From contig JAHRHZ010000040.1 in the NCBI GenBank assembly GCA_024137785.1, positions 6,765,545 through 6,829,544 on the forward strand: a stretch of DNA of 64,000 nt, written 5' to 3'. The stretch is from Ginglymostoma cirratum (taxonomy: Eukaryota). The notes beneath the pieces are model-generated. The model saw only the letters and a list, made by a program, of their open reading frames with translations. It was not told the DNA's origin and made no database searches. The position numbers were made by a program, and so were the translations under genes. Below are positions 5,613 to 57,216 of the stretch, one piece after another (the stretch's first letter is position 1; every line of letters starts with the position of its first letter).

Positions 5613-7385
5613 CCAATACCTTTAAAAGAAATATTTTATTATTATTACTAGAAACCTACGAGTACAGCTAGTGCCCAGATTGTGAACTGGTTCCATTCTG
5701 GTGTCTATTCAAAAGTTGATTTGTACGCAATTTGGAACACAATGCAGGACAATGAAAAGGAACTGTTTGTAGATACAAGAAATGTTTGGATCTTTAAATT
5801 TATACCCCTAATGAGGTTGTGTTTTTATGTATGGGCATTGATAAGTCAGACATTCATAAATCAGGGACCCCATGTTTTTGCCAATAAGTTTCTTCTGCCG
5901 TACCAAGGTAAGACCCAATTGCAGGAGGTAAGTCCTAGTGGAGATGACCCTTTTGTACTGATTTCGGTATCAGACTGTTCCCCTCTATATGTGTCACATC
6001 ACCCACTTTTAAATATAGAGAAACCTCATACACATAAAGAAAAATACATTGAGAGCAAACAATTCTGACCTTGAGAGAAAAACATACAACTGCTCAGCCT
6101 GAAATTTGTGTTGAATTGTTGAAATTAATGCAAATAATGACTGAACAATCAGTTAAATAGAGTAATTAAATGGTTATGCCATTTATGTTTCGGCAAGTTA
6201 AAAGACAGTGTTGATTTAGAATGAGCACTTCATAGCATGCCTCTGCGACAAAAACAGCACAGGACCTGCTAATTTATGGAACTGTACAGGAGACATGCTA
6301 GTTTGTCATGTTTTGAGATCAAATTTTGATTTAAATAGATTAGCCATCCATTTCTTTAGTGTTATCTGTGATCTGTGCCCTGATTATATTGCAACATCTA
6401 CTGTACTGAACTGCAAAGGTGAGCAGCTCTATCCAGCCTGTCCCCACACTCCTGATGCCTGAAACCAGATACCATTGTGCACAATGTAGCATGTAGCACA
6501 AACTTATTAACAATTTTAAAGTTTAATTTGTTCATGTATTAATACTGAACATTGACCTCAATTGTGAATTGAATATTTTTCCAACCAATATTTTCACTAA
6601 AATCTGAACGTTACAGTTCCAAACTTTATTTAATCTTGTAATTTTTACTTTTGTGATTCCATTATGTAGTGTGGCTCTATCACTGTACTAAATAGGATAC
6701 ATTTCAAACAGACCTAGCAACTCAAGATTTACGATCCATGAGGTATTGTGGGGCTTCAGCAGCAGCAGACTTATATTCAAGCACATTGTCCAACCTCATG
6801 TCCCAGCATGTCCCCCAAGTTACAAGGAGAAGGAGCAGCACCAGGTATACCTAAAAATTCGGTGCTAATCTGGTGAAGCTACAAAGCAGGACTACCAGTG
6901 TACCAAACAGCATAAGTAACAACTGTTAGACAGATAAGCAATTCCACAGTGACCTATCAGATCTAAGCTTGGCAGTCCTGCCATGTCCAAGCATGAATGT
7001 CCAATTAACCCAATGGAGAAAGCGGTGGCTCCACAAACAGCTTCAATGACGGGAGAGATAAGATGAATTTACAAGCAGCTTCGGCCAGAAGAGCCGAGTG
7101 GACATTCCATTTCGACCTCCTCTAGTGGCCCCCAGCATCACAGTTGCGAGTTTCGAGTCAGTTTGATTCACTCCATATGAAATGGAGGCACTGGATATAA
7201 CATTCCAGAAATAGTACTGAAGACATGTGCTCCGGGACAAGCCATGCCCCAGCAAAACACCTTGTCAGATATTTGAGATAACAAGCGTGGGGCTGGATGA
7301 ACACAGCAGGTCAAGCAGCATCATAGGAGCAGGAAAACTTGACGTTTCGGGCCTAGACCCTTCATCAGAAAATTTTCTGATGAAG

Positions 7386-7785
7386 NNNNNNNNNNNNNNN
7401 NNNNNNNNNNNNNNNNNNNNNNNNNNNNNNNNNNNNNNNNNNNNNNNNNNNNNNNNNNNNNNNNNNNNNNNNNNNNNNNNNNNNNNNNNNNNNNNNNNNN
7501 NNNNNNNNNNNNNNNNNNNNNNNNNNNNNNNNNNNNNNNNNNNNNNNNNNNNNNNNNNNNNNNNNNNNNNNNNNNNNNNNNNNNNNNNNNNNNNNNNNNN
7601 NNNNNNNNNNNNNNNNNNNNNNNNNNNNNNNNNNNNNNNNNNNNNNNNNNNNNNNNNNNNNNNNNNNNNNNNNNNNNNNNNNNNNNNNNNNNNNNNNNNN
7701 NNNNNNNNNNNNNNNNNNNNNNNNNNNNNNNNNNNNNNNNNNNNNNNNNNNNNNNNNNNNNNNNNNNNNNNNNNNNNNNNNNNNN
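7386..7785. other. Assembly gap (400 N), probably spurious
   Basis: The flanks overlap by 29 identical nt (7357-7385 = 7786-7814). Confidence 0.9.
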
Positions 7786-7801
7786 ACCCTTCATCAGAAA
7801 A

Positions 7802-7837
7802 TTTTCTGATGAAGGGTCTAGGCCCGAAACGTCAAGT
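7802..7837 (+). ncRNA. Minimal type I hammerhead ribozyme motif
   Basis: TTTT-CTGATGA-A-GGGT(CTAG)GCCC-GAAA-C-GTC-AAG: catalytic core boxes, helix II, GUC cleavage triplet and the palindromic ACGT helix III typical of Penelope hammerheads. Confidence 0.8.
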
Positions 7838-9109
7838 TTTCCTGCTCCTATGATGCTGCTTGACCTGCTGTGTTCATCCAGCCCCATACCTTGTTATCTC
7901 GGATTCTCCAGCATCTGCAGTACCTTTTATCTCTTGTCAGATACTTGAATAGGCAGGGAATAGAGAGATATGGACTACAGAGAGGCAAAAGATTTTTAGT
8001 TTAGAAAATTGTCATGTGCCAGTGCAGGCTTGCTGGGTCAAAGGGCCTGTTCATGTGCTGTACTGTTCTTTGTTTTCATTGTTCTTTGTAAAGCTGTTCT
8101 GTTACAGATACATTGCCCCACATACCTCGTGTACAAAAAGGAAGCAGAACAAATTGAAACTTGCTAATTACTATTCATCAGTCTACTCTTGATCATCCGT
8201 AAAGTGATGGAAAGTGTTATAAGCGGCACCTGCTCAACAATAACCAGCTCAGTGACACTCAGTTTGGGTTCCACCAGGGCCACTCAGTTCCTGAACTCAT
8301 TACAGCCTTGGCTAAAATATGGATGAAAAAACAAAATTCCAGAGAATGAATCCTTGACATCAAGAACCACATTTGACCAAGTGTGAATTCAAGGAGTACT
8401 CGCAAAATTGGAGTTAATCAGAATCCGGTAGAAAACACCATTGGCTGGAGTCTTACCTGGCACAGTGGAAGATGGTTGTGATTATTGGAGGTTAGTCATC
8501 TCAGCTCCAGCACACATCTGCAGGAGTTCCTCAGGGCAGCGTCCTCAGCCCATCTATCTTCAACTACTCCCCAAATCTGTCCAACATCTACAAGGCACAA
8601 ATAAGGAATGTGATGGAATAATCCCCACTTGCAGCTTCAACAACATTCAAGATCCTGTGCCCAATTGATCAATGGCCCCTCCACAAAAATTCACTCCCTC
8701 CACCACTAATGCTCAGTAGCAGCAGTGTGTACTATCTAGAAGGTACACTGCATAAAATCACCAAGGGTCCTTAAGACAGCACCTTCCAAATCTGTGTCCA
8801 CTACTATCTAAAAGTGTTAAGAACAGCAGTTAGGTGGAATCACCAAAACCTGCAAGTACCTCTCCAAGCCATTCACCATCCTGAATTTGAAATATATTCC
8901 TACAGAGTCATTAGGTCAAAATCCTGGAGTTTCCTTCCAAACAGTGCTGTGAATGCACCTACACTAAATAGACAGCAGCAATTCAAAGCAGGAGCTCCCC
9001 ATCACATTTTTGAGGGCAATGTAGGGAATAGAAATAAATGGTGCTGCTGGTCAAGAATTACCTTAAGAAAGAAAGAGCATTTCTCTTAATTATCAGCAAA
9101 TGCTGTGGT

Positions 9110-9350
9110 CACAATCTCACCCCTGAATCAGAACATTGTGGGTACAAACCCCAATCTAAAACTTGAGCATAAATTTGAGGGTAACAGTCCTACACAGCAC
9201 TGTGGGAGTGCAACATTGTGTGAGGGTGCTAATTGCTAGGCGAAACATTAAACTGATACCAGAGACTGTATGGTTAAATGAATTTTAACAATCTCTTGGT
9301 GCCATTTCAAAAATGAGCAACAAGAATTTGTATTTCTTATGGCCCGAAAA
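9110..9350 (+). mobile_element. Degenerate Deu-domain SINE (related copies at about 3930-4060 + and 55240-55420 -)
   Basis: tRNA-like head followed by CAGCACTGTGGGAGTGCAACATTGT...GGTGC, resembling the DeuSINE core. Confidence 0.5.
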
Positions 9351-10900: not shown

Positions 10901-10918
10901 CAGGAGTTGGAAGAGAAA

Positions 10919-17300: not shown

Positions 17301-18107
17301 ACCCAGAGCTTCTAGTTCAGAGGCAGGGAGACTACTCAATAGACCTCCACCAATCTACACTAGGATGCTCTTCATTACCTGTTTGTTAACTGGTGAAAAC
17401 AATCCTCTTATTATGGATTCACAGAGTTACACAGCACAGAAACAGACACTTTGGTCCAACCAGTCCATGCCAAAGGTAATTCCAAACCAAACTAGTACCA
17501 CCTGTCTGCTCCTGGCCCATTTCCCTCCAAACCTTTCTTATTCATGTACTTATTCAAATGTTTTAAACCTCCCTGGACAAAGGAACTGAAAGTCATTTTC
17601 TGAAGAAGGGTCTAGGCCCGAAACGTCAGCCTTCCTGCTCCTCTGATCTGCTTGGCCTGCTGTGTTCATTTGCAGCAGCGGAGGGAGAGGCGACAGCGAG
17701 GACCAGGGAGCTGTCTGGAAGGTAAGTTTGTCTCTTAAAGGGCTTACCTCGAGCGTTAGCGGCCTTCATTTGCAGCAGCGGAGCGAGAGGCGACAGCGAG
17801 GACCAGGGGGCTGCCAGGAATATCTTTGGGCAGCGCCTGAACCCGAGACACTACACGTGTAGTGTCTCCCACCCACCCGCCCTCCTCCTCTAACCAAAAG
17901 AAAGGGACTCTGTGGTGTGTTGGTAAGGTAAGGCTTTTCTATTTTTTTTCTATTTCTTCTGTATAGTGTAATTGGTTAAAAAATTACTTTCTTTTTTAAT
18001 TTTTGAACTATTAATTGGTTATTTGGAAAATACCATAGCAAAGAAGTATTAGGAAGTATTGAACTCATAAATTTATATAAAGTAATAACGTAATTAATTA
18101 GGTAGAG

Positions 18108-19062
18108 ATGGCTGGGCAGGTGATGTGCTGTAGCTGTATGATGTGGGAGCTGGCTGATCCCATTGTGAACGGCAGTGACCGCATTTGTAGCAAGTGTTGG
18201 TTGCTGGAAGAACTCTGGCTCAGAGTTGAGGATCTAGAACCTGAGCTTCAAACACTGCTGCACATCCGGGAGGGGGAGTGTTACCTGGACGCTTTGTTTC
18301 AGGAGGCAGTCACACCTGGTAGATTAAGTAATTCAAATTCAGTTAGTGATCAGGGACAACAGCGTGTGACTGCAAGTGAGGCAGGTAAGGGGATCCTGAG
18401 TTCAGGAGTGGAGGAGCCTCAGCCTTTGACCTTGTCCAACAGTAACGAGGTACTTGCTCTCTGTGTGGATGAGGAAAAGGGCTGCGGGGAGGATGAGCCA
18501 GCTCACCACAGCACCATGGTGCAGAAGGCCATTCAAGAGGGGGGAGCCAAAAGACAAGTGGTAGTTATAGAGGATTCTATTGCTAGGGGGATAGATAGCA
18601 TCCTTTGCAAGCTGGATTGGGAGTCCCGCATGGTGTGTTGCCTGCCCGGTGCCAGGGTGCAGGACATCTCTGACCGGCTTGAAAGGATATTGGAGCGGGA
18701 GGGGGAGGATCCAGTTTTTGTGGTCCACACTGGGACTAACAACATAGGCAAGGCTAGGATGGAGGACCTGTTTGGGGATTATCAAGCACTAGGAACGAAA
18801 TTAAGGAACAGGTCCTCGAGGGTCATAATCTCCGGATTACTGCCCGAGCCACGTGCAAATTGGCTTAGGGATAAGAAAATTAGGGAAGTAGACACGTGGC
18901 TAAGGGAGTAGTGTGTGAAAGAGGGTTCCATTTCATGGGGCATTGGCATCAGTTTTGGAACCGGGGGGATCTGTACGGATGGGACGGTCTCCACCTGAAC
19001 CGATCTGGAACCAGTATTCTAGCGAAAAGGATAAATAGGGTGGTCACTAAGACTTTAAACTA
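18108..19062 (+). pseudogene. CR1 ORF1 (zinc finger/coiled coil + SGNH esterase), disrupted
   Basis: CxxC...CxxC, VVIEDS (GDS motif altered), CLPGA, HTGTNN and DGLHLN. TAG at 18909-18911 and a downstream frameshift. Confidence 0.9.
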
Positions 19063-19235: not shown

Positions 19236-20950
19236 GTAAGAAAGCTAGCACTTTACCTGAATGCTTGTAGCATTCTTAACAAGATTGATGAGTTAACAGC
19301 AAAAATCATTGCGAATGAATATGATTTGGTAGCCATTACGGAGACGTGGTTATGGGATGGTCACGACTTGGAGTTAAATATCCAGGGGTACCAGACTATT
19401 AGGAAGGACAGACAGGAAGGTAAGGGAGGTGGTGTAGCTCCAATATTCAAGGACGACATCAGGGTGGTGCTGAGAGATGATATAGGTTCTCTGAGGTTGA
19501 ATCCATTTGGGTGGAAATTAGAAATTCGAAAAGGAAAAAGTCACTGATAGGCGTAGTCTATAGGCCACCAAATAATAACATCACATTGGGGCGGGCAATA
19601 AACAAAGAAATAACTAATGCCTGTAAAAATGGTACGGCAATTATCATGGGGGATTTTAATCTAAATGTAGATTGGTCGAACCAGCTTGGTCAGGGTAGCC
19701 TTGAGGAGGAGATAACAAGATGTGGAGCCGGATGAACACAGCAGGCCAAGCAGCATCATAGGAGCAGGAAAGCTTGACGTTTTGGGCCTAGACCCTTCAT
19801 GCTTGACAAATCTTTTGGAATTCTGCGAAGACATTACGAGCAAGGTAGGCAATGGGGACCCAGTGGATGTGGTGTACCTAGATTTCCAAAAGGCCTTCAA
19901 CAAGGTGCCACGCAAGAGGCTGCTGCATAAGATAAGGATGCATGGCGTTAGGGGTAAAGTATTAGCATGGATAGGGGATTGGTTGACTAATAGGAAGCAA
20001 AGAGTGAGGATAAATGAATGCTATTCTGGCTGGCAATCAGTGACTAGTGGTGTGCCTCAGGGATCAGTGTTGGGATCACAATTATTTACAATTTATACAG
20101 ATGATTTGGAGTTGGGCACCACGTGTAGGGTGTCAAAGTTTGCAGATGACACTAAGATGAGTGGCAGAGCAAAGTGTGCAGAGGACTGTGAAACTTTGCA
20201 GAGGAACATAGATACATTGAGTGAGTGGGCAAAGGTCTGGCAGATGGAATACAATGTAAATAAATGTGAAGTCATACATTTTGGTAGGAGTAATAGTAAA
20301 AAGGATTATTACTTGAACGGTAAAAAGTTGCAGCATGCTGCTATGCAGAGGGATCTGGGTGTCCTTGTGCATGAATCACAGAAGGTTGGTCTGCAGGTAC
20401 AACAAGTAATTAGGAAGGCAAATGGAATTTTGTCCTTCGTTGCTAAAGGGATTGAGTTTAAAAGCAGAGAGGTTATGTTGCAGCTGTACAAGGTGCTGGT
20501 GAGGCCACACCTGGAGTACTGTGTGCAGTTTTGGTCTTATTTGAGAAAGGATGTACTGGCACTGGAGGGGGTGCAGAGGAGGTTCACTAAGTTGATTCCA
20601 GAGTTGAGGGGGTTGGCTTATGAGGAGAGACTGAGTAGATTGGGATTATATTCATTGGAATTCAGAAGATTGAGGGGGGATCTTATGGAAGCATATAAAA
20701 TTATGAAGGGAATGGATAAGATAGAAGTAGAGAGGATGTTTCCACTGGCAGGTGAAGCTAGGACAAGAGGGCATAGCCTCAAGATTAGAGGGAGCAGATT
20801 TAGGACTGAATTGAGAAGGAACTTCTTCACCCAGAGGGTTGTTAATCTATGGAATTCCTTGCCCGGTGAAGTAGTTGACGCTACTTCAGTAAATGTTTTT
20901 AAAGTTAAGGTAGATTTTTTTTGAACAATAAAGGAATTAAGGGATACGGT
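19236..20950 (+). pseudogene. CR1 ORF2 (APE endonuclease + RT), frameshifted and internally deleted
   Basis: YLNACS, ITETWL, VYRPP and GDFN, then CLTNLLEF, YLDFQKAF, PQGSVLG and FADDTK. Confidence 0.92.
19710..19800 (-). mobile_element. Penelope pLTR fragment at the deletion junction in CR1 ORF2
   Basis: GATAACAAG...GACCCTTCAT lies between CR1 LEEE and CLTNLL, with no TSD. Confidence 0.85.
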
Positions 20951-27235: not shown

Positions 27236-27484
27236 AGACTCCTGAACGAATCTTTGATATGTCACGACCACAGTCTAGCACAATCTATGATCTGGAGCTC
27301 TGTGAAGCATTACTGCTCCCTCCATTCATGACCTTATCTGGATATGATTGACTTGCCCACATGAATTGCACTTTGACGAGAAATTCCTCAAACTTCCTGT
27401 GAGAGTTCCAAAAGCACGTCACAATGTACTTTGGTTCTTAATTTCACAAGTAAAGTGCACAAAATGATATCCCATCTTTTACTC

Positions 27485-27707
27485 AGAGATAGTAAGAACT
27501 GGCGGTGCTGGAGTCAGAGATAACACAGTGTGGAGCTGGAGGAACCCAGCAGGCCAGGCAGCATCAGAGGAGCAGGAAAGTTAACATTTCGGGTCGGGTC
27601 GGGACCCTTCTTCAGAAGAGAAGGGTCCCAACCCAAAATGTCAACTTTCCGGCTTCTCATCTGCTGCCTGGCCTGTTGTGTTTCTCCAGCTCCACACTGC
27701 GTTATCC
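27485..27707. mobile_element. Fold-back palindromic Penelope pLTR derivative (older subfamily)
   Basis: Inverted arms around CTTCAGAAGAGAAG, tail on the left arm only. TSD TATCC(C/T)ATCTTTTACT at 27468-27483 and 27703-27718. Confidence 0.85.
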
Positions 27708-27927
27708 TATCTTTTACTGTTCTGTGTTGCACAAAGACAAACGTGCTGCAGACAACCGTGATTGAACCCGGTTTATTTATGCTTCCCCAACTAAAGAGGG
27801 GAGTTGAGAGGGCAATAGAGCAAAATGCTTAACTCTGGCAACAAAACTGCAATCCATTAACATAGTAACGAGTTTATCATAATGTACATATGTAACCATT
27901 TCCTGCAAAAATTGACTGTCTGCAATG

Positions 27928-30515
27928 GAGATAAAAGGTACTGCAGATGCTGGAGAATCCAAGATAACAAGGCGTGGGGCTGGATGAACACAGCAGGCCA
28001 AGCAGCATCATAGGAGCAGGAAAACTTGACGTTTCAGGCCTAGACCCTTCATCAGAAATGGGGGAGGGGAAGAGGGTTCTGAAACAAATATGGAGAGAGG
28101 GAGAGGCGGATAGAGGATGGATAGAGGAGGGGATAGGTGGAGAGGAGGCAGACAAGTCGAAGAGGCGGGGATGGAGCCAGTAAAGGTGAGTGTAGGTGGG
28201 GGGGTAGGGAGGAGATAGGTCAGTCCAGGGAGGACGGACAGGTCAAGGGGGTGGGATGATGTTAGTAGATAGGAGATAGGGGTGGGGCTTGAGGTGGGAG
28301 GAGGGGAAAGGTGAGAGGAAAAACAGGTTAGGGAGGTGGAGTTGAGCTGGACTGGTTTTGGGATGCGGTTGGGGGAGGGGAGATTTTGAAGCTTGTGAAA
28401 TCCACATTGATGCCATTGGGCTGCAGGGTTCCCAGGCTGAATATGATTTGCTGTTCCTGCAGCCTTCGGGTGGCATCACTGTGGCATTGCGGGAGGCCCA
28501 GGATGGACATGTCGTCTGAGGAATGGGAGGGGGAGTTGAAATGGTTCGCGACTGGGAGGTGCAGTTGTTTGTTGCGAACTGAGTGCAGGTGTTCTGCAAA
28601 GCGGTCCCCAAGCCTCCGCTTGGTTTCCCCGATGTAGAGGAAGCCACAATGGGTACAGCGGATGCAGTATACCACATTGGCAGATGTGCAGGTGAACATC
28701 TGCCTGATGTGGAAAGTCTTCTTGGAGCCTGGGATTGGGGTGAGGGAGGAGGTGTGGGGGCAGGTGTAGCACTTCCTGCGGTTACAGGGAAAAGTGCCGG
28801 GTGTGGTGGGGCTGGAGGGGAGTGTGGAGCGGACAAGGGAGTCGCAGAGGGAGTGGTCTCTCCGGAAGGCAGATAAGGGTGGGGAGGGAAAAATGTCTTT
28901 GGTGGTGGGGTCTGATTGCAGATGGCGGAAGTGTCGGAGGATGATGCGTTTGATCCGGAGGTTGGTGGGGTGGTACGTGAGGACGAGGGGGATTCTTTTT
29001 TGGTTATTATTGTGGGGACGTGGCGTGAGAGATGTGTTACGGGAAATGCGGGAGACACGGTCGAGGGCGTTCTCGACCACTGTGGGGGGAAGTTGCGGTC
29101 CTTGAAGAATGAGGACATCTGAGATGTACGGGAGTGGAATGTCTCATCCTGGGAGCAGATGCGGCGGAGGCGAAGGAATTGGGAATAGGGGATGGCATTT
29201 TTGCAGGAAGGTGGGTGGGAGGAGGTGTATTCCAGGTAGCTGTGGGAGTCAGTGGACTTGAAATGGACATCGGTTTCTAGGTGGTTACCCGAGATGGAGA
29301 CAGAGAGGTCCAGAAAAGAGAGAGAAGTGTTGGAGATGGTCCAGGTGAACTTCAGGTTGGGGTGGAAGGTGTTGGTGAAGTGGATGAACTGTTCGAGCTC
29401 CTCGTGGAAGCACGAGGCGGCGCCGATGCAGTCATCAATGTAACAGAGGAAGAGGTGGGGTTTAGGGCCACTGTAGGTATGGAAGAGGGATTGTTCCACG
29501 TAGCCTACAAAGAGGCAGGCATAGCTTGGGCCCATGCGGGTACCCATGGCCACCCCCTTTGTCTGTAAGAAGAGGAGGAATTGAAAGAGAAGTTGTTGAG
29601 GGTGAGGACGAGTTCGGCTAAGCGGATGAGGGTGTCGGTGGAGGGGGATTGGTCAGTTCTGCGGGACAGGAAGAAGCGGAGGGCCTTTAGGCCATCTGCA
29701 TGGGGAATACAGGTGTATAGGGACTGGACATCCATAGTCAAAATGAGGTGTTGGGGACCGGGGAATTGGAAGTTCTGGAGGAGATGGAGGGCGTGGGTGG
29801 TGTCACGGACGTAGGTAGGGAGTTCCTGGACCAAGGGGGTGAAAATGGAGTCTAGGTAGGTGGAGATGAGTTCAGTGGGGCAGGAGCAGGCGACCAGGGC
29901 ATTCAGGTTTGTGGATTTTGGGAAGGAGATAGAAGCGGGCGGTGCAGGGTTGGGGAACGATGAGGTTGGAGGCGGTGGGTGGGAGGTCACCTGAGGTGAT
30001 GAGGTTGTGGATGGTTTGGGAGATGATGGTTTGGTGCTCGGGGGTGGGGTCATGATCCAGGGGGCGGTAGGAGGAGGTGTCAGAGAGTTGGCGCCTGGCC
30101 TCAGCAATGTCGAGGTCAGTGTGCCATACTACGACTGCCCCTCCCTTGTCTGTGGGTTTTATGGTGAGGTTGGGATTGGAGCAGAGGGAGTGGAGGGCTG
30201 CACGTTCTGCGGTGGAGAGGTTGGAGTGTTTAAGAGGGGTAGAGAGGTTGAGGCGATTGATGTCTCGACGGCAGTTGGAGATGAAGAGGTCGAGGGAGGG
30301 TAGGAGGCCTTGGGGTGGTGTCCTCTTCGACTTGTCTGCCTCCTCTCCACCTATCCCCTCCTCTATCCGCCTCCCCCTCTCTCCCTATTTATTTCAGAAC
30401 CCTCTTCCCCTCCCCCATTTCTGATGAAGGGTCTAGGCCCGAAACGTCAAGTTTTCCTGCTCCTATGATGCTGCTTGCCCTGCTGTGTTCATCCAGCCCC
30501 ACGCCTTGTTATCTC
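27928..30515 (-). mobile_element. Penelope-like retroelement (Neptune-type), 5'-truncated with an inverted pLTR
   Basis: RT motifs DKGGAVVV, TMDVQSLYT, AMGTRMGPSYA and YIDD; Cys-rich linker CNRRKCYTC; GIY-YIG NVVYCIRC...YIGETKR..RFAEH; several frameshifts. Inverted 3'-end copy at about 30322-30515. TSD TGTCTGCAATGGAG at 27917-27930 and 30518-30531. Confidence 0.95.
30417..30452 (+). ncRNA. Minimal type I hammerhead ribozyme motif in the inverted pLTR
   Basis: ATTT-CTGATGA-A-GGGT(CTAG)GCCC-GAAA-C-GTC-AAGT. ATTT/AAGT form helix I; predicted cleavage is after 30448. Confidence 0.82.
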
Positions 30516-31122
30516 TATGTCTGCAATGGAGGAAGGTTTAACCAAATTGCAAACTTGCTTTTTGATTATCGTGTAGTATGCAGGAAATGTTCCCCTGTAT
30601 GTGTTATCAAAGATTGAACTTTGTTCTTTTAAAAAGTTTAGTAAGCGCCCATTAAGTGAATAATGTGTAATTATATAGTTATATCTTAAATGAACTATCA
30701 ATAAGAAATTTTGCAGTTTTATATTGTGCTTCATGAGTAGATCTGCTACTTTAAAAGAGGTAACTAGAAAACTGTGAATAGTGTAAAAAGATATGAAAAC
30801 AAAATTTACTTGCAATCGTAAAGGCCAGCTTTATTGGGAAGTCAGAATGTATTGTTCCTGACCAGCCTCAGGGCTGCTGGGATTTGTTTCCCCAGAGCAT
30901 TTCAATGATCTAGAGCTGGCCCAGAGCCTAGTGCCTGTGGATCGAGTTCAGAAGCCAAAATGTCATTATGTAAAATGCAAACAAAGATTTACCATGTAAA
31001 TTGAATATGCGGGAAACAGCACATTTATAAATAATAAAAACAAATCAAATTTTGTATCAGTACAAGTATTTTGCTGCCAGAGATTTTTACAATCAAACAT
31101 AACAATTTTGTTCAATTTTCAG

Positions 31123-37119: not shown

Positions 37120-39590
37120 GGACCAAATATGTAGACAATTCGCAGAGATGTGTAAAAACAACAAGTGTCATTACACCAGGGATTTCAACATCCCCTATAT
37201 TAAATAGGATAGTGTAAAGGGTTTAGATGGGGCGGATTTCTTGAAATACATTCAAGTTAGCTTTTGATGTCAAAATGTAGAACGTCCAACAAGGGATGGT
37301 TCAGTGCTAGACCTAATTGTGGCAAGTAAAGGTGGACGGCTGTTCAAGGTGGCAGTGGGAGATCAGTGGCTGATAGCAAACACAACACTACAAATTTTAG
37401 TTTGTTATGGAAAGAAAATGATCTGCAACAAAGGGTTTTGGATTGGGAGAAAAGCAGATTTTGTTAAATGCTGCAGAATATGGCTGGGAGCAGCTACTTA
37501 TGGAAAAATCCATGGCACAACAGTTGAAGTGATTGTCAAGTACAGGCCCAACATGTTCCTACTTGGGTGAAATACAGAAGCCACAAGCCAGGAGAACTCT
37601 AGATGTCTAGGAGTGTTCAGGATGGATAAAAAAGAGAAGAGAGGCTTTTGACAGGTACAAATGGAGCAAATTAACAGAGCCCCCCGGTCAAGTACAGAAA
37701 ATGCAGAGAGGATCTTATGAAAGCAATTAGGAGAGAAAAGATGGGGCATGAAAAAACACTGGTGACTAAAATTAGGGAGAATACCAAGATATTTTACAAA
37801 TATATTAACAAGAAGAGGACAACCAGGGAAAGAGTAGGGACCAAGGGGCCAATCTGAGTGTGGAGCCGGATGACATTGTGAAACAAGTTTAACACATCTG
37901 TCTTCACACAAGAGAAGGAGGATGTAGGTACAGAATTCAGGGGAAGGAATTGTAATGTTGTTGACATGGGAGTTAAAAGGTATTGGATGTGTTGACATGC
38001 TTAAAAACATGGACAAATCCCCAGGTCTAAATGAGTTGTATCTCAGGCTGCTGTGGGAGGCTTGAGAGGAAATTACAGGGCACTGACACAGATTTTAAAT
38101 CCTCTCTGGCCACAGGGGAGGTACTAGAGGACTGGAGGGCAACACATTTAGGTCCACTTTTCAAGAGGGGGTATAGCAATAAATCAGGGATTTGTAGACC
38201 AGTGAGTTTCACATCAGTGGTAACAAAACATTTGGAGAAAACTCTGAAGGAGAGAATTAATTTCCACTTGGAGAGGTGATGTTTGATCACGGATAGCCAG
38301 CATGGCTTTGTCAGAGGGAGGTCATGTCTAACAAATTTGATTGAATTTTTCAAGGAGGTGGTCAGATGTGTAAAAGAGGGTAGTGCGGTAGGAGTAGTTT
38401 ATATGGAATACAGTAAGACCTTTCACAAAATCCTACATGGGAGACTGATAGAGAGGGTAAAAGTACACCCAGGGCAACTGGCAAGATAGATCCAAACTTG
38501 TGGGAGACAGGGGATGGCTGGAGAAGGCTATTTGTGTAACTGGAGATTAGTGTCCAGGGTCAGTGCTTTCTCCGTTATTGTTCCTGATTTCTATAAGGAT
38601 ATAAATGAGAATGTGGTGGGGTGGGGGATGATAATAAGGTTACAAGAACATATAGCTAGGTTGGTCAAATTGGCAGCTCAGTTGCAGGAGGTATTTAACC
38701 CCATAAAAGGTGAAGTTATGCACTTTGGAAGATGTAGCAAGACAAGGGAGTACTCAATGAATGACAGGGCACTAAGAAGCTCAAAGGAGTAGAGGGATAT
38801 TGTGGTGCTAGTCCACAGACCTCTGAAAGTGGCAGGACAGGTTAATAGTGTATTTAAAAAGGCATATGAGGCACTTGCCTTTAGCAGTTATGGAATAGAT
38901 TATCAGAGCAGGGAGGTTATGTTCAAGCTGTATATAACATTAGTTGGGCTACAGCTGGAGTATTATGGGTTAAAATTGTATCAGAGGGTTTAGGCCCGAA
39001 ACGTCAAGTTTTCCTGCTCCTATGATGCTGCTTGACCTGCTGTGTTCATCCAGCCCCATGCTTGTTAGCTGGAGTATTATGTGTGGTTCTGGTCACTACA
39101 CTATGTGAAGATGTGATTGCATTGGAGATGGTGAGAGGAGATTCATCAAGATGTTGCCTGAGATTGAACAGTTCGGGTATGAAGGGAGGCTGGATAAACT
39201 CGAGATGTTTTCTTTACAGCAAAGAAGCCTGAGGGAGGACCTGATTGAGGTGTATAAGATTGTGAGGGGCATTGATGGGGTGCATAGGAAATCACTGTTC
39301 TCCATGGTTGAAAGATCAATAATGAGGAGTAGAATTTTAAAGTGAAAGTCAGGGGGTTTAGAGGAAAAATTTCTTCACCCAGTGGGTAGCAAAAATCTGG
39401 AAAGCACTGCCTGAGAGTAGCAGAGGTGAAAAACCTTACAACATTTAGATAGTACTTGAAAGAGCACTTGAAGTGTCATAACATTCAAGTCTAAAGGCCA
39501 ATCGCTGGCATGTGGGATTGTTGTAATTAGATCAGTCCAGACTTGATGGGCTGAAGGGCCGCTTCTGTGCTGTTTGATTCTATGACTTTA
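37120..39590 (+). mobile_element. Degenerate CR1 ORF2 in locus A intron 4
   Basis: RPVSFTSVV, SQHGFVRGRSCLTNLIEFF and LREDLIEVYKI motifs. Confidence 0.85.
38968..39066 (+). mobile_element. Truncated Penelope pLTR derivative inserted in CR1
   Basis: TSD AGCTGGAGTATTATG at 38953-38967 and 39067-39081. The hammerhead 3' half follows ~18 unrelated nt. Confidence 0.85.
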
Positions 39591-39920
39591 TGCATGTCAA
39601 TGGACAGTTTTGATTCTCTCTTGTATGAGATAGTCATTCACTTGAACTTGTATCAGTTAAATATTATTTGACACTTGTCAGCTGGATATTGCCCAGGCCT
39701 TGCAGCATATGAACATAGACTTCTTCAGTTGCTGTAAAAGATTGAGACCAGGCTAATTGTCCAACCACTAAGTGGGGAATGGTGCCCAGATTGGAATCAA
39801 AAGAAGAAAGATGAAGAAGTTAATAGTGCAAAAAGATGGAGCAATAATTTAGACAATTTTTAACAAATATGTCAACTGATTTTCCTAAGAAGTAATAATT
39901 CCTTGTTCATCATTTTACAG

Positions 39921-40070
39921 AGACCTGAATCACGCAGAACAACAAGTACAACAATATCTATCCACAATCTAAAACTCAGAACAACTTACTGCATGCATGC
40001 TCGAATACAGATACCTTTATTCATTAAATCAGTAAATATGGTAGAGAAAAATGTGCAACAACATTTGATG
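39921..40070 (+). pseudogene. Locus A exon 5 (FNIII D2, second half)
   Basis: RPESRRTTSTTISIHNLKLRTTYCMHARIQIPLFIKS. Adding 1 nt near 40031 gives xKYGREKCATTFD+g and a phase-1 GTAAGG donor. Confidence 0.85.
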
Positions 40071-40334
40071 GTAAGGCAAAGTGACCTGAGTAGAACTACT
40101 TGTTCTGTATTCTTTCATGGGATGTGGGTGTCACTGGCAAGGCCAGCATTTGTTGCCCATCCCTAATTGCCCTGGAGCTTAGTGGCTTTCTAACTAGTTA
40201 AGAGCCAACCACATATCTAGTGGGTCAGGAACCATACATAGGCCAGACCAGGTAGGAATGGCAGATTGCCTTCCCTTGAGCTGTTTAGTGAACCAAATGG
40301 GTTTTCAAAGTAAATGATAGTAGTTGTTATCGAC

Positions 40335-40775
40335 AATATTCTCAAGTTTATCCAGCTTCTCTTCATACCTAAACTGCTCAATCCCCGGTAACATCCTGAT
40401 GAATCTCCTCTCACCCTCTCCAATGCAATCACATCCTTCCTATAGTGTAGCAGCCAGAACTGCACACAGTACTCCAGCTGTCGCCCAACTAACGCTATGT
40501 ACAACTTCAACTTAACCTCTCTTAACTCTTATAATCTATTCCACTACTGATAAAGGCAAATGCCCCATATGCCACCTCAAATACAGTACTAACTGGTCCT
40601 GCTCCCTTCAGGGTTCTGTGGGCAAACACCCAAGATCCCTCTGTTCCTCTGAGCTTCCTATTGTCCTGCCATTCATTGAACACTCCCTTGTCTTGTTACT
40701 TCTTCCAAAGTGCATCACCTCACACTTTTCAGGGTTATAATACAATTTGACCAACTTGGCTATATCTTCCTGTGA
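40335..40775 (-). mobile_element. CR1 fragment nested in a SINE
   Basis: ORF 40217-40510 reads LYIALVGRQLEYCVQFW. Confidence 0.8.
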
Positions 40776-43583
40776 CTTAGCTTCACTTCCAAATTATGAA
40801 TTGAAATTATTAAAGTTCCAACAGTTGCTATGAAGGGATTTAAACCTATGGCCTACAGACCATTACAAGCTACTGATTCAGTGATATTTGCCACTATGCC
40901 ACCATCACCCTCAGACTCTCAAATGTTAAACTAAACATCAGTTTTGAAACACCAGGAGCAACGCTTCCATTCAAAGTTTGCCGGTAATAGAACAGCACAG
41001 CACACAAACGGGCCTTTTGACCCATCAAACTTAATGTTAATCTTTCCTTCCTAAAGTATTCTACTGCAATTGCTCCCTTTTTTCCAATTTTGCCAGTGGG
41101 AAGGTCTTGATTCATGTTTGGCCAGGTTCCTATTGCACAAATTGTGGCCAAGCAATTCAAACACAGGGAGAATCACAGCCAAGGTGTCCGCTCCCATTAT
41201 TCACAAAAACATTGTAATGATTATTGATTGGGAACATGAATCCAAAGTACATTTACTTTCCTTTTCTAGTTCATGCAATAGCGAGGCTAACTGTAATGTT
41301 CCCTACTCAATCCTGATTGAGAATGCTTAACTGGTTTCCACATAGGATTGGTTCAAAACTAGGTTATTCTTCCCTCCAAACAAAGTGTAAGAAATAATTA
41401 CTACTGTACTCATTCATGTCATAGAAATGCTGCTAAAAGTTTGAAATTAATTATTTTAGCCAAGTCTTACAGTCATTGCCACTTGAATGAAAAATAAAGC
41501 ATTTATTATTTGCAAAGGTGCTAAATATGTCCAAATGCCATATAAATACACCTTGAGTTAGGCCTGCAGCCATTTAATGCTGGTAAATGGGACTAGATTA
41601 ATTTAAGGTATCTGGTCGACATGGATGAATTGGACTGAAGGGTCTGTTTCCTGCTGTATGACTGTATGACTATTTTACACGATAGCACTAAATGTAAATA
41701 AAAAGGACAAAAAATAATGGACACTGTGATTTTCCATACTTGTGTCCATCCTTCCAGGCTAATATTTGGGAAATGTGTCCATTAAAGTCATGAAATCATT
41801 AAACCAACAGCACCTGGTGATAAGATAGTAGAAGCATACACTTTGGCTTGAGGAATTTCAAGAGAAGAGTTGATATGTCAATAGAATCCTGACAAAACTA
41901 TTATGATTAACTACATTGTACAGTAAAAATTAAAGCATAGTTAAGAATAGGTTTACTAAAAAATGAGTTTACAAATTTTCACAGCAATCCTCGCAATAAT
42001 AATGAAATCTTTTCTGGCACGTTATGATTCCAAACCACTTGATGTTAATTTTTTGTTGTGCAATTGGACAACAAAATGTTGGTGTTCATTTATACCACTA
42101 ATACATGATTTTTGCTGAGCTTCCACCAAGGTTATCTTGAGAGATTGAGAAATTCTACATGCTTTATGAAACAAACGATCCTTTTCATTGTCCTGTCTCT
42201 TATAATACAGTGAATGACACAGAAGTGAGCTGTAATTTAAGCTGTAATGTTTTTTCTCCACAGAGGTCGAGTGATAACATACATTGAAATAGGAAGATGA
42301 TTTAGAAGTAAATTGTTTAAATGTGCTTTAAACAACTTACAAACAAATGAACAAAAGAATAAATCAACTGGAAAACTGCTTACAAATCCCTAGTGGTTAC
42401 CAAGAAAGGACTGACAAAAGACAAACATTGCCAACAGATAGAAACATAAGTTCAAATTTAATTAAATTCAATTGTTTTTCAAAAAAGTGCAATTAGTTTT
42501 TGACAAAGTATTTGTTTTGAAACCATATTTAAAGATGATTATTTTAGCTGTATGCTACTAATGTAGCATACATAGGTCTTTCATCAATCCAGTCATTCGT
42601 AAACACAACCTGTAAGATGAATGCAACGTAATAAAACAAAATTTGTGACATTATTCCCCCGAAGCTTTATTCATTTACAGACACTCGCTGTTGTTAAACT
42701 TCAGTAAATTGAATGAGATACTGAACAATTTGCTCTCATGGTGATGTTTCAGAGGTTTCCCTTCAAATCCACTCCCTCTGTTCTAAGCCACTGACTACTC
42801 TGTTTATCTTTTCATGGATCTGGGTCCCAATCGTTTTTCCATAATCACCTCCAAGTCAAATTCCTACTTTTGCTTTTCGCAGTTTTATTTGCATGTTCTC
42901 CCAGGATCCAAGCTGCCATATGCTGCACCTACAAGAGAACATATGACCACATGACATAGGAGCAGAGGAAGTCCATTCAGCCCATGAAGTCTACTCTGTC
43001 CTTCAATGAGATTGTGGCTGATCTGATAATCCTTAGCTCCACTTTCCTGCCTTTTCCCCAGTACCCTTATAATTGTTTTGCATGATATCAAGCACCATTC
43101 TGGCATCAGTCTCAATACAGAGTAACTCCACCTGATGAAAATCCAGTGTGCTTATAACCAAAGGAAGTGCTTCCAGGCTGTAGGGATTCTATGATTCTAT
43201 GATTGGAGTATTACTGTTTTAGTTTGCCAAAGCCATGCATAACCTTGGAAATTCTTGACAAATTTCTCTTCCATTTTCCTCTTGCATCTACTATCTCTTA
43301 AGAGTCCTGGACTGAATGCACGTGTTCCTACTGAGTAATGTGTTGTATCCTAGTGTGTCAATGTGTATATAGTCTCACTAATCTCTTGCCTTTATGGCAG
43401 AGTGCGGTGGTAAGTTGGCCTTGCACAGTCCAGAACCTCATTTGCTCCTCTTTGATTCCACTTCCAAAGATTGACTTACTTTGTTGATCTCCATCCTTGA
43501 TTTTTTTAGACCTATTTCTTTCCAAATGATTTCCTTTTGTCTTTGTTTCTGTGGTGACCTAGGAGCAACTGATCTGCAGTATT

Positions 43584-43729
43584 AGAGATAAAAGGTACTG
43601 CAGATGCTGGAGAATCCGAGATAACAAGCATGGGGCTGGATGAACACAGCAGGTCAAGCAGCATCATAGGAGCAGGAAAACTTGACGTTTCGGGCCTCAA
43701 CCCTTCATCAGAAAATTTTCTGATGCTTG
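43584..43729 (-). mobile_element. Penelope pLTR derivative with a collapsed second palindrome arm
   Basis: One full arm with tail, then AAAATTTTCTGATG fused to CTTGT. TSD TGATCTGCAGTATT at 43570-43583 and 43730-43743. Confidence 0.88.
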
Positions 43730-43767
43730 TGATCTGCAGTATTGCTTGACAATCCAAATTGACAACA

Positions 43768-51981: not shown

Positions 51982-52157
51982 ATATGGAAAACCCTGGTCA
52001 AACACAACAGATTGTTGGGGCATCAAGGAAACTTCCTGCGACCTCACACAAGAGACAAGTCCATTTTTTGAAAAATTTTTTGCAAGAGTGAGAGCTTATT
52101 CATTTAATGAAATCTCAAATTGGACAGAAAGTGAGGCATTTTGTCCAATGACAGATA
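51982..52157 (+). CDS. Locus B exon 3 (FNIII D1b)
   Basis: YGKPWSNTTDCWGIKETSCDLTQETSPFFEKFFARVRAYSFNEISNWTESEAFCPMTD; phase 2 to 1. Confidence 0.93.
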
Positions 52158-52879: not shown

Positions 52880-53052
52880 CTCTCATTGGCCCTCAAGAGA
52901 TAGAGGTGATTTCCTTTGAAACATCAATCCTTGTTAAGGTGATTGCTCCCTGCACAATGCTAAAAGAGCAGAATGGCAGCCTGAAGTCGGTGGAAGATAT
53001 ATATCACAAAGTGAAATATGATATAAAGGTGTCAGTCAAAGCATGGAGTCAG
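52880..53052 (+). CDS. Locus B exon 4 (FNIII D2a)
   Basis: TLIGPQEIEVISFETSILVKVIAPCTMLKEQNGSLKSVEDIYHKVKYDIKVSVKAWSQ; phase 1 to 0. Confidence 0.92.
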
Positions 53053-53141
53053 GTAAGCATCCTTGCCTTTTTTCATTTTTTATTCCATTTATTGAATCTA
53101 TAATGAGATGATTATTCATTAATTGTTCATCTAACCCCCAG

Positions 53142-53288
53142 ATACGTTTGGAAAATCTGAGAACTTATATTACTAACAACAAAACTTTTGAGATCCATCA
53201 CTTAAGTCCTGGAACAACCTACTGTATTTCTGTTCAAACAACGGTTCCATTATACAGTAAGATTGGTAAACCAAGTAAAGAAGTGTGA
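53142..53288 (+). CDS. Locus B exon 5 (FNIII D2b), ending at a premature TGA
   Basis: IRLENLRTYITNNKTFEIHHLSPGTTYCISVQTTVPLYSKIGKPSKEV*. A GTGAGT donor is still present at 53300. Confidence 0.9.
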   Translation: MRLENLRTYITNNKTFEIHHLSPGTTYCISVQTTVPLYSKIGKPSKEV

Positions 53289-53398
53289 GACACTGACCAG
53301 TGAGTCGTACAGTTTGTTTAACTCTTTCAATACAGGTATTTCAGTAATATCTAACATGCATTAACTGACTGTTAATTTAACTATGCTTTAATCCACAG

Positions 53399-54073
53399 GG
53401 CCAAAAACTAGAATAATGCACTCAGTGATAACCTGCTCAGCATGTGGGGCACTAATCCTGGTTATACTTTCGACTTATACTTTAAGTACTCTATGCCCCT
53501 AAAACACAATTACCCGCAATGTTGACAAACTGGAATAGAAAAGAACCAGAAATTGCTGTGTTTTTACCTCAAATTATTGAATCAACAAATATTGATAAAT
53601 GGGAACTTACAGAAAACTCAAAATATCCGAGACTTTCACTGTTACAAAATAGAACTGCAGCACATGCACAGCATTGTAAAAAATACATCAACATTGAATC
53701 TCCAGGTAGATTCAGAACCAGAGATTTTGATCAGAGCTTTATGCATCAGGATACCATTATATTTTATCAGTACCTTGAGCAGCCTCGATTTATTTGTTCT
53801 CAAAATGCACAGTTAGACCTAGAATCTGACACCTTGTTCTGCATAGACCAGCAAGAAGAGAACATCAGGTTGCAATGGATGTCAGCAGATTGCTGTCAAT
53901 ATCAATTCTGCTGCCAAAACAAAGAGGAATTCGAAGTTCTGGAAGCAGAATCTTTTCAAAAACCAACAGAGATCTCTGCACCTGGATATCCAGACTATAT
54001 CAATGAGGACTTTTGTGAAGATCCAATTTTGAAGACCTGGGGACTGATCATCCAACAAATAGATATAGTTTGA
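53399..54073 (+). pseudogene. Locus B fused TM + cytoplasmic exon (IL20RA-like tail), frameshifted as assembled
   Basis: CACAG acceptor, then PKTRIMHSVITCSACGALILVILSTYTLSTLCP* (TAA at 53500). The shifted frame reads PKTQLPAML into the 184-aa ORF containing YLEQ and ending WGLIIQQIDIV. Confidence 0.8.
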
Positions 54074-54108
54074 AATTTTTATAAATACAAAGTCTTAACA
54101 TGGCATTA

Positions 54109-54114
54109 AATAAA
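54109..54114 (+). terminator. Candidate polyadenylation signal of locus B (second AATAAA at 54232)
   Basis: AATAAA ~35 nt after the tail ORF stop, in AT-rich sequence. Confidence 0.4.
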
Positions 54115-55789
54115 AGACATTTTACCTGAACCAGAATATGCTCTGTAAATTTGTAGGCCTTAAAGTTGAAATATTTTAATTATTTCTATAATATTATAAG
54201 AAACTTCAAGGTCAAAAAGAATCTTTAACCTAATAAAGCTCTATTATCCTGCTGTAATATGTAACTGCATTTTCTATGGTCCTCAATCTTTGCACTCACT
54301 GCAATACTGATATTAACATTCTAAGTTAATGTATTTATCCTATTTATCTACCTCCATTTATATACCTTCATTATATTCTCCCCCAGTTGGTCTCTTTCAA
54401 AGTTATAAATCTTGAGCATTTCTAACTTTATTCTTTGGTAAACCATCTGCTTCACTGGCATTGACTTTATCAATATTTGTTCACTTAATTCAACATATTC
54501 TTTGCTGTCTCAAACCCTCATATCACAACTGAGTATCCAGCCAACTACATGAAATCTTTTACTACATCCTGAAATAAAAAAGTATTTTTCCATGTAGCAG
54601 CCTGCACAGGGCACTACGCGATATTGTGGAACCAAAAATGATCTTTCAAGAGGGGAAAAGAAAGAAAGACTTTTTTTTATCATAAATAAAAGCAAAATCC
54701 TGTGGATGCTGGAAATCTGAAATGAAAATAACGGTTAATATCCAACATGTCTGGCAGCATTTGTGAAGTGAGAAACAAAACTGATGTTTTGAGTTCAAGA
54801 TGCCTCTTCTTCAGAATTGCATTTAATTAGATCTTTTAACAGACATTGGATGTCCCAAAGTATTTTTGAAACATCATCACTGCTGTGATCAAAGAGACAT
54901 GGCAGTAAATTTGCACTCAGCATACTCCCACTAAGAACACTGTGATAATGATCCGATAATCAATTGTGCGTATGTCAGGGGGTCACTGAGCTCAGTTGAC
55001 TGGTTTGTGATGCAGTGTGATGCTAACAGCAAGGGTTCTTTTATCCCATACCAGCCGAAGTCACTGTGAAGATAGTACCTCATCCCTCACCTGGGCTATG
55101 GTGATTTGCAGGTTAAACCACTGTCAGTTATCTCTCAGTAGTGAGAGAGCAGGCCTATAGCAGCTTCATACTTTAATTGACATATAGGCATTAGCCAAGC
55201 CACCTGGCAACTCCTCAACCCTGATCTCCAATGTAGTGGTGTGAGCTTGTGTACATTGACCTGAGTGAGTGGCCAGGTTCTTGGTTTAAATTTTCATCCA
55301 AAATAAAAACAGCACTTCTGTCAGTGCAGGGCTCACTCAGTACTTCATATGCTGTACTTTATAGTCAAGTCCTGTAGTGGGACTTGGACCTAGAAGTAAG
55401 TGTGTTAACAATTATGTCATACACTGACAACCAATTCTCCCCAGCGGCAAAAATCGTCACAAATTTGAAGCCTATTACCAACACATCAGACCTAATGGGA
55501 TTCCTCTGCTTTCACTCGTATCAGGACTGCACTGGCTGTTCCTACCCCATCATTTGTTTTGAAAAGGCAAATTTCACTCCTTTCCACCCGTGGCAACATG
55601 CTGATAGCAACTTGTGAAATGCAAATGTGCAAACGCCTAATGTTGGATAGCAGGTCCTTCAACATCTAAAATGAGATGGGTTTAAAATTTCAAGTCTAGA
55701 GTTTATATTCAGTTCTTATATTGTAGCTAAAAGCATGTTTCTCTTCCCAATAAATGCCGAGTGATTTCTGACGTTTCCAGCATTTGCAT

Positions 55790-55999
55790 CAGAGATAAAA
55801 GGTACTGCAGATGCCGCCTCCTCTCCACCTATCCTCTCTTCTATCCATCCTCTATCCGCCTCCCCCTCTCTCCCTATTTATTTCAGAACCCTCTTCCCCT
55901 CCCCCATTTCTGATGAAGGGTTTAGGCCCGAAACGTCAAGTTTTCCTGCTCCTATGATGCTGCTTGACCTGCTGTGTTCATCCAGCCCCATGCTTGTTA
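55790..55999. mobile_element. Penelope derivative: ~25-nt tail stub plus an inverted pLTR with intact hammerhead (core at 55910)
   Basis: TSD TCCAGCATTTGCAT at 55776-55789 and 56000-56013. Confidence 0.88.
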
Positions 56000-56049
56000 T
56001 CCAGCATTTGCATGTTCCTTTTTCTTTTTATATGTAATGATATAAATAT

Positions 56050-56063
56050 CCAGCAGGGGGCAT
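56050..56063 (+). promoter_or_regulatory. Candidate CTCF site (forward)
   Basis: CCAGCAGGGGGCAT. Confidence 0.6.
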
Positions 56064-56354
56064 AAGGTCCTGGAGACACTCATTTGTTAAGTTACTCACT
56101 GGTATGGGAAGAAACATAATACTTCGCCTTAGTACCTAGTTCCTTGAATCTGTGAGAAATAGTTTGACTCCAAACTGGTGACTTCAACACTTCTGTCACA
56201 ATCTGTGCCAAACATTATTTGGTAAGGGTCTCGGCACATGTAATGAATCCTCCAAAAATATACCAAATAGATACATTGTGATATCTATCAATGTGTAACT
56301 CAGATTTGGGGATGGTGCTGGCGTTTTGGAACTCAACTCCCCAACTAAAACCGT

Positions 56355-56940
56355 CCCTAAGATTTATCTACCTTTATGCCTTTTATGACCTGCAGCACCT
56401 CCTCTTCTGTAATATAAACTCTTTTTGATGCATAACTATTTATTTCCTCAAGTTCTCTAGCTTCCACAGTAAATACTGTTGCCAAATATTTGTTTAGTAA
56501 CTCCCCGTCCGGTATGGTTCCATTCAGATGGCCACGTTGACCTTTAAGGGATCCCATTTTCTCCCTAGTTCCTCTTTTGCCTTTAATATACTTACAGAAT
56601 TTCTTTGGATTCCTCTTAACTCTATTTGCCAAAGCTATCTCGTGTCCCCTTTTTGCCATCTTGATTTCCCACTTGAGCATATTCCTACAGGCCTTATACT
56701 CCTTCGGGGATTCACTAAATCCAAGCTGCCTGTAGACATACGTCTCCTTCCTTTTCTTGACCAGAGCCTCAACTATTCTAGTTGTCCAGCATTCCCTACA
56801 CCGGTCAACCTTGCCCTTCACACTAACTCATTATCTCATTCTTAAAGGCTTCCCACTTCCCAACCATCCCTTTACCCGCAAATAGGTCACCCAATCAACT
56901 TTTGAAGGTTCCTGTCTAATACTGTCAAAATTGGCCTTTC
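56355..56940 (-). mobile_element. CR1 ORF2 middle fragment
   Basis: ORF 56357-56821 reads KRNPKKFCKYIKGKR...LNKYLATVFT...IKVDKS. Confidence 0.85.
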
Positions 56941-56991
56941 AAATAAAACCAAAAATGCTGGAGAAACTGAGCAGGTCTGACAGCTTAGTAA

Positions 56992-57216
56992 ACAAGGTGT
57001 AGAGCTGGATGAACACAGCAGGCCAAGCAGCATCAGAGGAGCAGGAAGTGTGACGTTTTGGGCCTAGACCCTTCTTCAGAAAAATTTTTTTCTGAAGAAG
57101 GGTCTAGGCCCGAAATGTCAGCCTTCCTGCTCCTTTGATGCTGCTTGGCCTGCTGTGTTCATCCAGCTCTACACCTTGTTATCTCAGATTCTCCAGCATC
57201 TGCAGTTCCTACTATC
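56992..57216. mobile_element. Fold-back palindromic Penelope pLTR derivative with hammerhead motifs
   Basis: Inverted arms around AAAAATTTTTTT, tail on the right arm. TSD TCTGACAGCTTAGTAA at 56976-56991 and 57217-57232. Confidence 0.92.

Follow-up and report, generated by a model that had tools for sequence, protein, structure and literature searches.

Fold-back Penelope insertions in the genome of Ginglymostoma cirratum share a stop upstream of the hammerhead core, the probable mark of a template RNA end

Penelope insertions in the window

We analysed 64,000 nucleotides of the 4.36-Gb genome of the shark Ginglymostoma cirratum (assembly GCA_024137785.1, contig JAHRHZ010000040.1, positions 6,765,545 to 6,829,544 of the forward strand), which we call the window. 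It holds a coding Penelope element, at 27928, and five insertions, at 7276, 27485, 43584, 55790 and 56992, all of which are Penelope end pieces. In a fold-back, two copies of the end piece, or arms, stand head to head; one arm ends in a short tail and the other stops short of it. Throughout, positions in the element are counted on its sense strand, with the C of the hammerhead core CTGA(T/A)GA as 0. The relevant features, in window coordinates, are:

7261-7948: short fold-back insertion with its target duplications (7261-7276 and 7933-7948); no-tail arm 7276-7371 (minus strand) and tail arm 7803-7932 (plus strand), both stopping at -3
27468-27718: older fold-back (about 75% alike) with duplications 27468-27483 and 27703-27718; tail arm 27487-27617 (minus) stops at -2, other arm 27620-27706 (plus) runs from +5
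27929-30321, minus strand: coding element, 5'-truncated and frameshifted, with reverse transcriptase (RT) region, GIY-YIG endonuclease, and a 3' end with hammerhead motif and tail
30322-30514, plus strand: inverted no-tail arm of the coding element, about -110 to +93, reading through the hot spot
30386-30394, plus strand: TATA-like box TATTTATTT, at -35 to -27, 31 nt upstream of the A at -4; putative promoter role
30415-30421, plus strand: initiator-like CCATTTC, with its A at 30417 (position -4)
30417-30455, plus strand: minimal type I hammerhead motif, from a motif scan and a hand-set structure
43569-43743, minus strand: one-armed insertion with duplications 43569-43583 and 43729-43743; tail arm 43586-43714 (-3 to +126), then a 10-nt mirrored piece and 4 more bases
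55774-56013: inverted insertion turning away from the hot spot, at +105/-94; tail stub 55793-55814 (minus, +105 to +126) and arm 55816-56001 (plus, -94 to +92)
56975-57232: short fold-back of an older subfamily (88% alike), centre A5T7; no-tail arm 56991-57082 (minus), tail arm 57089-57217 (plus)
7806, 55910 and 57092 (plus); 7368, 27615, 28055 and 43711 (minus): further copies of the hammerhead motif

Target-site duplications of 15-17 bp (one mismatch allowed) flank all five insertions and the coding element, near 27916-27930 and 30517-30531 in the latter. An earlier note on this DNA had taken the five for independent insertions, each with its own duplication, and that much is confirmed. It had also ascribed to them a single shared design, which does not hold: only 7276 and 56992 are two-armed and turn at the centre it proposed, the latter in a longer version, while 43584, which it had placed with these two, is one arm with a 10-nt mirror. 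Insertions 27485 and 55790 turn elsewhere, 27485 at -2/+5, close to that centre without lying on it. The asymmetry it described between a tail arm (to +126) and a no-tail arm (to about +93) is found in 7276, 27485, 27928, 55790 and 56992, and not in 43584, which is not two-armed. Fold-back 7276 contains a 400-N assembly gap at 7386-7785, with an identical AAAATTTT centre written on either side of it. Five more single arms lie in the window, at 725, 4117, 17597, 19710 and 38985.

The coding element and its hammerhead motif

Judged from its sequence, the coding element is an endonuclease-bearing Penelope-like element (PLE), with an RT followed, at the C terminus, by a GIY-YIG domain (PF01541, E 2.8e-05) that has two cysteines between GIY and YIG, as C-x-x-C before the YIG motif. 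The frameshifted pieces of its RT region gave no Pfam match, and a PDB search with an RT piece gave none either; 439 relatives of the element carry PF00078/PF26215, and the best named relative is a shark protein, 92% alike. The layout of the class is present as well: a pseudo-long terminal repeat (pLTR) in partial tandem, an inverted 5' copy, a one-sided tail of 30-40 bp, and a target duplication. By likeness, the element is a candidate member of the Penelope/Poseidon clade rather than of Neptune or Nematis.

The motif at 30417-30455, a candidate ribozyme, displays the features of the minimal type I hammerheads of PLEs, namely CUGANGA (here CTGATGA), GAAA, a stem II (GGG/CCC), a short palindromic helix III (ACGT), an NUH site, and a short stem I (ATTT/AAGT). 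The predicted cut falls after GTC, at about +24 to +26. An Rfam scan of the window returned no hammerhead and only three chance matches, and the lowest-energy fold of the 39-mer differs from the hammerhead fold. Public RNA reads show no pile at the predicted cut site, in libraries that could hardly reveal one. Minimal hammerheads in Penelope pLTRs have already been described (PMC4209133).

In the full elements sampled (loci L166 and L181), the tail continues into the 5' untranslated region (UTR) and the start of the open reading frame (ORF), so that priming must be internal. At about 3140-3600 of L181, the N-terminal part of the ORF includes an Ala/Thr/Pro-rich repeat segment whose length varies among copies.

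Arm ends cluster around the hammerhead core

The exact 29-nt tail occurs 41,376 times in the genome, and the exact 30-mer palindrome of the fold-back centre 205 times. For the analysis of arm ends we sampled the first two contigs, taking 30 loci from the exact-tail list and 60 ten-kb stretches around most other places on it, which together yield 95 exact-tail copies and 158 young arms. The 3' ends of these arms are bimodal: 94 of the 158 end at +126, where the arm query itself stopped (some copies extend by TGATAC(A), with which the 5' UTR of full elements begins), and 40 end at +91 to +93. In PMC11167929 the tail lies between two RT start sites, which these two ends match.

For the 5' ends we set aside the 46 young arms that end at assembly gaps, retaining 112. 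Stops at -8 to -1 account for 26 of the 67 arms at risk, or 4.85% per nt, against 2 of 41 (0.22% per nt) at -30 to -9, just upstream. Downstream, 16 of 83 arms at risk stop at 0 to +8 (2.1% per base), and the rate falls to 0.38% per nt at +9 to +34 and 0.41% at +35 to +60. The peak thus has a sharp upstream edge and a short downstream trail, and the clustering of arm ends around the hammerhead core is far beyond chance; the earlier note had proposed to plot inversion points as a check, and in this sample the arm ends come out clustered. By whole-genome patterns, the genomic C at -9 is absent in 18,806 arms, a figure that includes some mutated read-through arms, versus 32,642 arms that read through. 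Single-arm copies and inverted arms show the same peak, and so do the points at which partial tandems jump; it recurs in older subfamilies, with 7 of 13 arms less than 80% alike. Target-site duplications of 9-16 bp, with a mode of 14, were found in 48 of 74 pairs.

Short fold-backs make up at least 13 of the 95 unselected tail copies by hand count; scaled roughly to the genome, this would be several thousand. The palindromes of fold-backs break the assembly: 32 of the 95 sampled copies (also counted by hand) have a gap of 100 or 400 N at the junction, so exact fold-back counts are low. We excluded an assembly artefact as the source of the fold-backs, because target duplications flank the copies and joints at -5 to -3 occur in the raw reads of another study, where library fold-backs are possible.

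Some sampled junctions (L114, L080, L088 and L061) contain a long T run or repeated re-copies of the arm's last 5-15 bases, which recalls telomerase-like realignment where a template ends, or the inserts left by polymerase theta. Among the loci L185-L214, 30 copies carry the start of the 5' UTR and only 2 continue into the whole ORF start; in the others the break comes 37-49, about 80-160 or 271-277 nt beyond the tail, with a further pLTR-containing piece next to it. It seems that the enzyme jumps back to preferred places just downstream of the priming site; such jumps would build partial tandems.

The stop as the probable end of the template RNA

Fold-backs probably form when one template gives rise to two reverse transcripts that run off the 5' end of the RNA and are then joined head to head; we predict this RNA end at 3-6 bases upstream of the hammerhead core. 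Three observations point to a property of the template molecule: the concordance of the arms, an extra T, and the conservation of TATTTATTT. Whether an arm stops or reads through is common to both arms of a copy: among the 19 informative of 56 unselected pairs, 9 are stop/stop (3 of these having one or both arms cut by a gap), 9 are through/through and 1 is mixed (p = 1.2e-4), and with selected loci included the counts become 22, 9 and 2. An extra T before the core (ATTTT) is found in 4,106 stopped arms, part of which take the A from the joined partner, versus 36 read-through arms (CCCCATTTT). The length of the T run is equal between arms in 28 of 30 scorable centres (counted by hand), and both passes have the four-T run in two direct tandems, L186 and L203, but a single pass has it in L190. 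The box TATTTATTT, at -35 to -27, hardly varies among the read-through arms, 76 young and 15 older.

The arms of a copy also share alleles. In 57 well-formed arm pairs, drawn from 152 candidates, where agreement in about half would be expected, the arms agree in 45 of 50 pairs at +57, 33 of 35 at +31, 47 of 54 at the +83 indel, and 25 of 30 at +12; the last site on its own is not significant in gap-free pairs (12 of 17).

The A at 30417 is our predicted RNA start, and it is also the 5' edge of hammerhead stem I. The initiator consensus is YYANWYY, and the 31-nt distance from TATTTATTT to the A of CCATTTC is the spacing of a TATA box and its initiator. The heptamer TATTTAT is presumably that of the SV40 early box.

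These elements suggest the following course of events. The TATA-like box at -35 and the initiator at -4, lent by the 3' end of an upstream copy, would start a transcript that begins with hammerhead stem I; read-through transcripts carrying upstream sequence would exist as well. The protein would nick both target strands about 14 bp apart and prime on the RNA at two internal sites, as is known in vitro for a lizard relative, with priming at about +93 and at +126 (or +133) giving the no-tail and the tail arm. On an RNA that begins at the start site, both copies would end after 100-130 nt and yield a short fold-back, whereas on a read-through RNA both would continue and break at scattered places, yielding long inverted elements like that at 27928. 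The two ends appear trimmed by 0-10 nt and carry microhomology or short templated inserts at the joint, through which they may have been joined; one end may also fold back on itself for a few bases, as at 43584.

A bolder version, which we put forward tentatively, treats the arms as the analogue of a 'strong-stop' product. A TATA/initiator promoter supplied by the upstream copy would set the RNA start on the first base of stem I, an enzyme with two heads would prime twice about 100 and 130 nt inside the RNA, and the run-off copies would be joined to each other (fold-backs) or to the target (solo pLTRs), or would jump back downstream on the RNA (partial tandems). If this is true, pLTRs, inverted ends and tandems would all trace back to one stop, and stuttering at the start site would have left its record in the extra U.

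Besides the gap-cut arms and the borrowed A noted above, several observations weigh against a run-off at an RNA end. Two sets of public RNA reads show no pile of molecule starts; in the usable poly(A) run, where passive transcription of thousands of copies dominates, depth is the same on either strand, and the other run has 34 reads. A cap-derived extra G, at first suggested by the junction centres, was not borne out, the two-base centres being genomic GC in 28 of 50 cases and cap-type CG in 1 of 50 (counted by hand). Stopped arms do not carry the TGATAC extension into the 5' UTR significantly more often (8 of 37) than read-through arms do (5 of 34; p = 0.55). Gene conversion, or subfamilies whose activity fell in different periods, could also explain the allele sharing between arms. 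Since TATTTATTT precedes CAG, it could be part of a splice acceptor instead. The Drosophila virilis start is placed about 120 nt upstream of the hammerhead, and the intervening intron ends at helix I (PMC2377424, PMC4209133). A promoter lent by the upstream copy has been proposed for Penelope tandems, the fly promoter there being internal and TATA-less (PMC2377424). Finally, the lizard enzyme cuts its own ORF-pLTR junction mostly at 5'-ATT-3' (PMC11167929), a motif that bears on the first of the alternatives below.

The pyrimidine tract and TTTCAG at 30395-30397 and equivalents (-26 to -24), 20 nt upstream of stem I, are a good splice-acceptor match. No spliced copies were seen among the read-through arms, at most 2 of 41 of which end in -30 to -9; templates spliced to the CAG at -24 were rejected on this count and for the lack of a step in RNA depth there. 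Deletion at a G-quadruplex, considered on paper, would remove the hammerhead side, which is kept. Opposite-strand joints at -5 to -3 make up 9 of the 15 among the joints listed from the RNA reads. A>G differences in these reads, a possible sign of editing, coincide with polymorphisms among copies.

Alternative explanations

The turning point might instead arise on a continuous template, as a stall of the RT at the edge of stem I or in the C-rich run, or as an endonuclease nick of the new DNA at ATT. The peak does lie exactly on the 5' edge of stem I, where ATTT pairs with AAGT, and the absence of a cap signature at two-base centres is as this explanation would have it. A chance stall or cut, however, should hit the two arms independently, and 18 of 19 pairs agree; the extra T is nearly confined to stopped arms; and an enzyme arriving from the 3' side would presumably have opened stem I before reaching -4. 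The agreement of arms could still come from an RNA fold, or from a protein bound to the RNA, if these vary from one template molecule to the next, yet on the whole we think a stall or nick unlikely.

Self-priming is less probable again. Here, by our reading of the passages on junctions in PMC3846280, the second arm would be the first copy folded back and extended on itself, rather than started from a second nick. This would account for the agreement of alleles and T runs between arms, for the 10-nt mirror in 43584, for the mirrored inserts in many centres, and for the short second arms ending at +28 to +60 (some of them gap-cut). In long inverted copies, however, the no-tail arm often reaches farther upstream than the tail arm (-154 versus beyond -600, -257 versus -599, +105 versus -94), which is impossible for a copy of the first strand. 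Moreover, +93 also ends direct, uninverted copies, and is therefore a start site of its own. Self-priming also leaves the stop of the first strand at -4 unexplained.

The earlier note had offered as its first option a non-autonomous, retrozyme-like unit of about 230 bp that replicates as a hairpin; such a unit would form a lineage of its own. Short fold-backs are common among the sampled tail copies, the exact centre is common to 205 places, and fold-back joints occur in RNA reads, which speaks for such a unit. The junctions tell otherwise. Head-to-head junctions with at most 30 bases between cores number 1,099; scoring the centres by hand in the first 50 listed, we found 39 different ones, many with short templated inserts and plain AAAATTTT once (two of the 50 rows are one locus across a gap, and two more may be a duplication). 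The fixed turning point that had been proposed therefore survives as a position, clustered at -8 to +8 around the core, and not as a sequence. Since each copy has its own junction, fold-backs were likely made anew at each insertion, as dead products of it.

The arms give the same answer. In 19 young short fold-backs the two arms of a copy differ by 3.5%, versus 7.1-7.8% between copies on either side, so that arms are indeed closer within a copy than to same-side arms elsewhere, as the note had proposed to examine; side-specific alleles were absent among these 19. Two subfamily haplotypes dominate, and both occur in fold-backs and in long copies. A junction and side-specific alleles shared across insertions, as a master hairpin would have, are thus lacking. 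No head-to-tail multimers of the hairpin were seen in the loci read: the arms stand head to head, and direct repeats are two-unit partial tandems with unlike junctions. A fold-back transcript is predicted to form a near-perfect duplex (-187 kcal/mol) with the hammerhead buried inside. We conclude that the hairpin replicon is very improbable and already largely refuted.

Least credible of all is that self-cleavage by the hammerhead sets the turning point: the motif is conserved and adjacent, and 5 of 112 young arms end at +23 to +34, but some 30 nt separate the predicted cut from the peak upstream of it, the arms retain the whole core, the stop rate at +9 to +34 equals that at +35 to +60, and cleavage is dispensable for insertion in the experiments of PMC11167929. 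The note's second option, a reproducible event beside the ribozyme at integration, is borne out as regards the place; with the peak so far from the cut and so few ends at it, the physical 5' end of the RNA is a likelier cause than a ribozyme-driven template switch.

Relation to known elements

The fold-backs have a known layout of a known class, and do not amount to a new mobile unit. Earlier accounts of PLEs describe a copy in inverted orientation, a tail on one side, a target duplication and palindromes at the junction (PMC8557442, PMC3846280). Inverted-pLTR insertions of endonuclease-bearing elements, Pen2a_Av and others (PMC3846280; legend of Fig. 2 in PMC8557442), share with ours the head-to-head 5' copy, the tail of 30-40 bp on one side and the target duplication, as well as palindromes, both at the inverted junction and where pLTRs have their 5' ends, with assembly trouble there. 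In the shark, by contrast, the commonest short product is two pLTR-sized arms alone, with a sharp shared stop before the hammerhead. The passages on Pen2a_Av-type palindromes ascribe them to an antisense template on which self-priming takes place, and make no mention of a shared stop.

The Poseidon element of Anolis carolinensis, PAc (PMC11167929), has the same RT with C-terminal GIY-YIG, a pLTR hammerhead, and two internal RT starts bounding the tail; both target strands are likewise cut and extended, and 5' truncation of the RNA shortens the product. Its ORF starts inside the hammerhead, whereas in the shark element the ATG within the hammerhead opens just 14 codons and the long ORF begins about 40 nt past the tail. 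The portions of that text consulted treat neither fold-backs nor the transcript start. Non-LTR retrozymes (PMC7229834; bioRxiv 10.64898/2026.07.22.740005) are also short non-coding Penelope-derived sequences with a type I hammerhead, but they form head-to-tail tandems, with a hammerhead per unit on one strand, and circular RNA, whereas the shark fold-backs are head-to-head and single-use.

What is new, as far as the literature searched goes, is the evidence on the stop: we found no report of this exact stop or of a shark fold-back family, and this 5' edge may already be visible in a coverage plot in PMC11167929. Young copies, tens of thousands of them in a single genome, form a statistical record of the intermediate, and the prediction that follows is precise, namely an RNA start at -6 to -3. 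The added value lies in genome-scale evidence that the turn marks where the template RNA ends, which offers a clue to Penelope replication that can be tested.

A comparison with LINE-1 is also useful. In twin priming of LINE-1, both target nicks prime and the copies are joined, which gives an inversion within one target duplication. The two-nick priming and joining are the same in our scheme, but in LINE-1 the second primer is scattered and the arms do not overlap, whereas the shark element has both starts fixed and both arms copying the same stretch.

Other features of the window

Two fragments, at 18102-18911 and 19716-20924, have ORF1-like and RT-end-like frames, which we take for a likeness to long interspersed nuclear elements (LINEs) of the CR1/L2 type. 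The Penelope arm at 19710-19800 is fused to the start of the second of these. At 38639-40776 lie two inverted LINE-like fragments, about 80% complementary, one of which is interrupted by the solo Penelope arm at 38985-39070 with its 18-bp duplication. Finally, the plus strand at 53486-54073 has a 195-aa open frame that is possibly a host exon.

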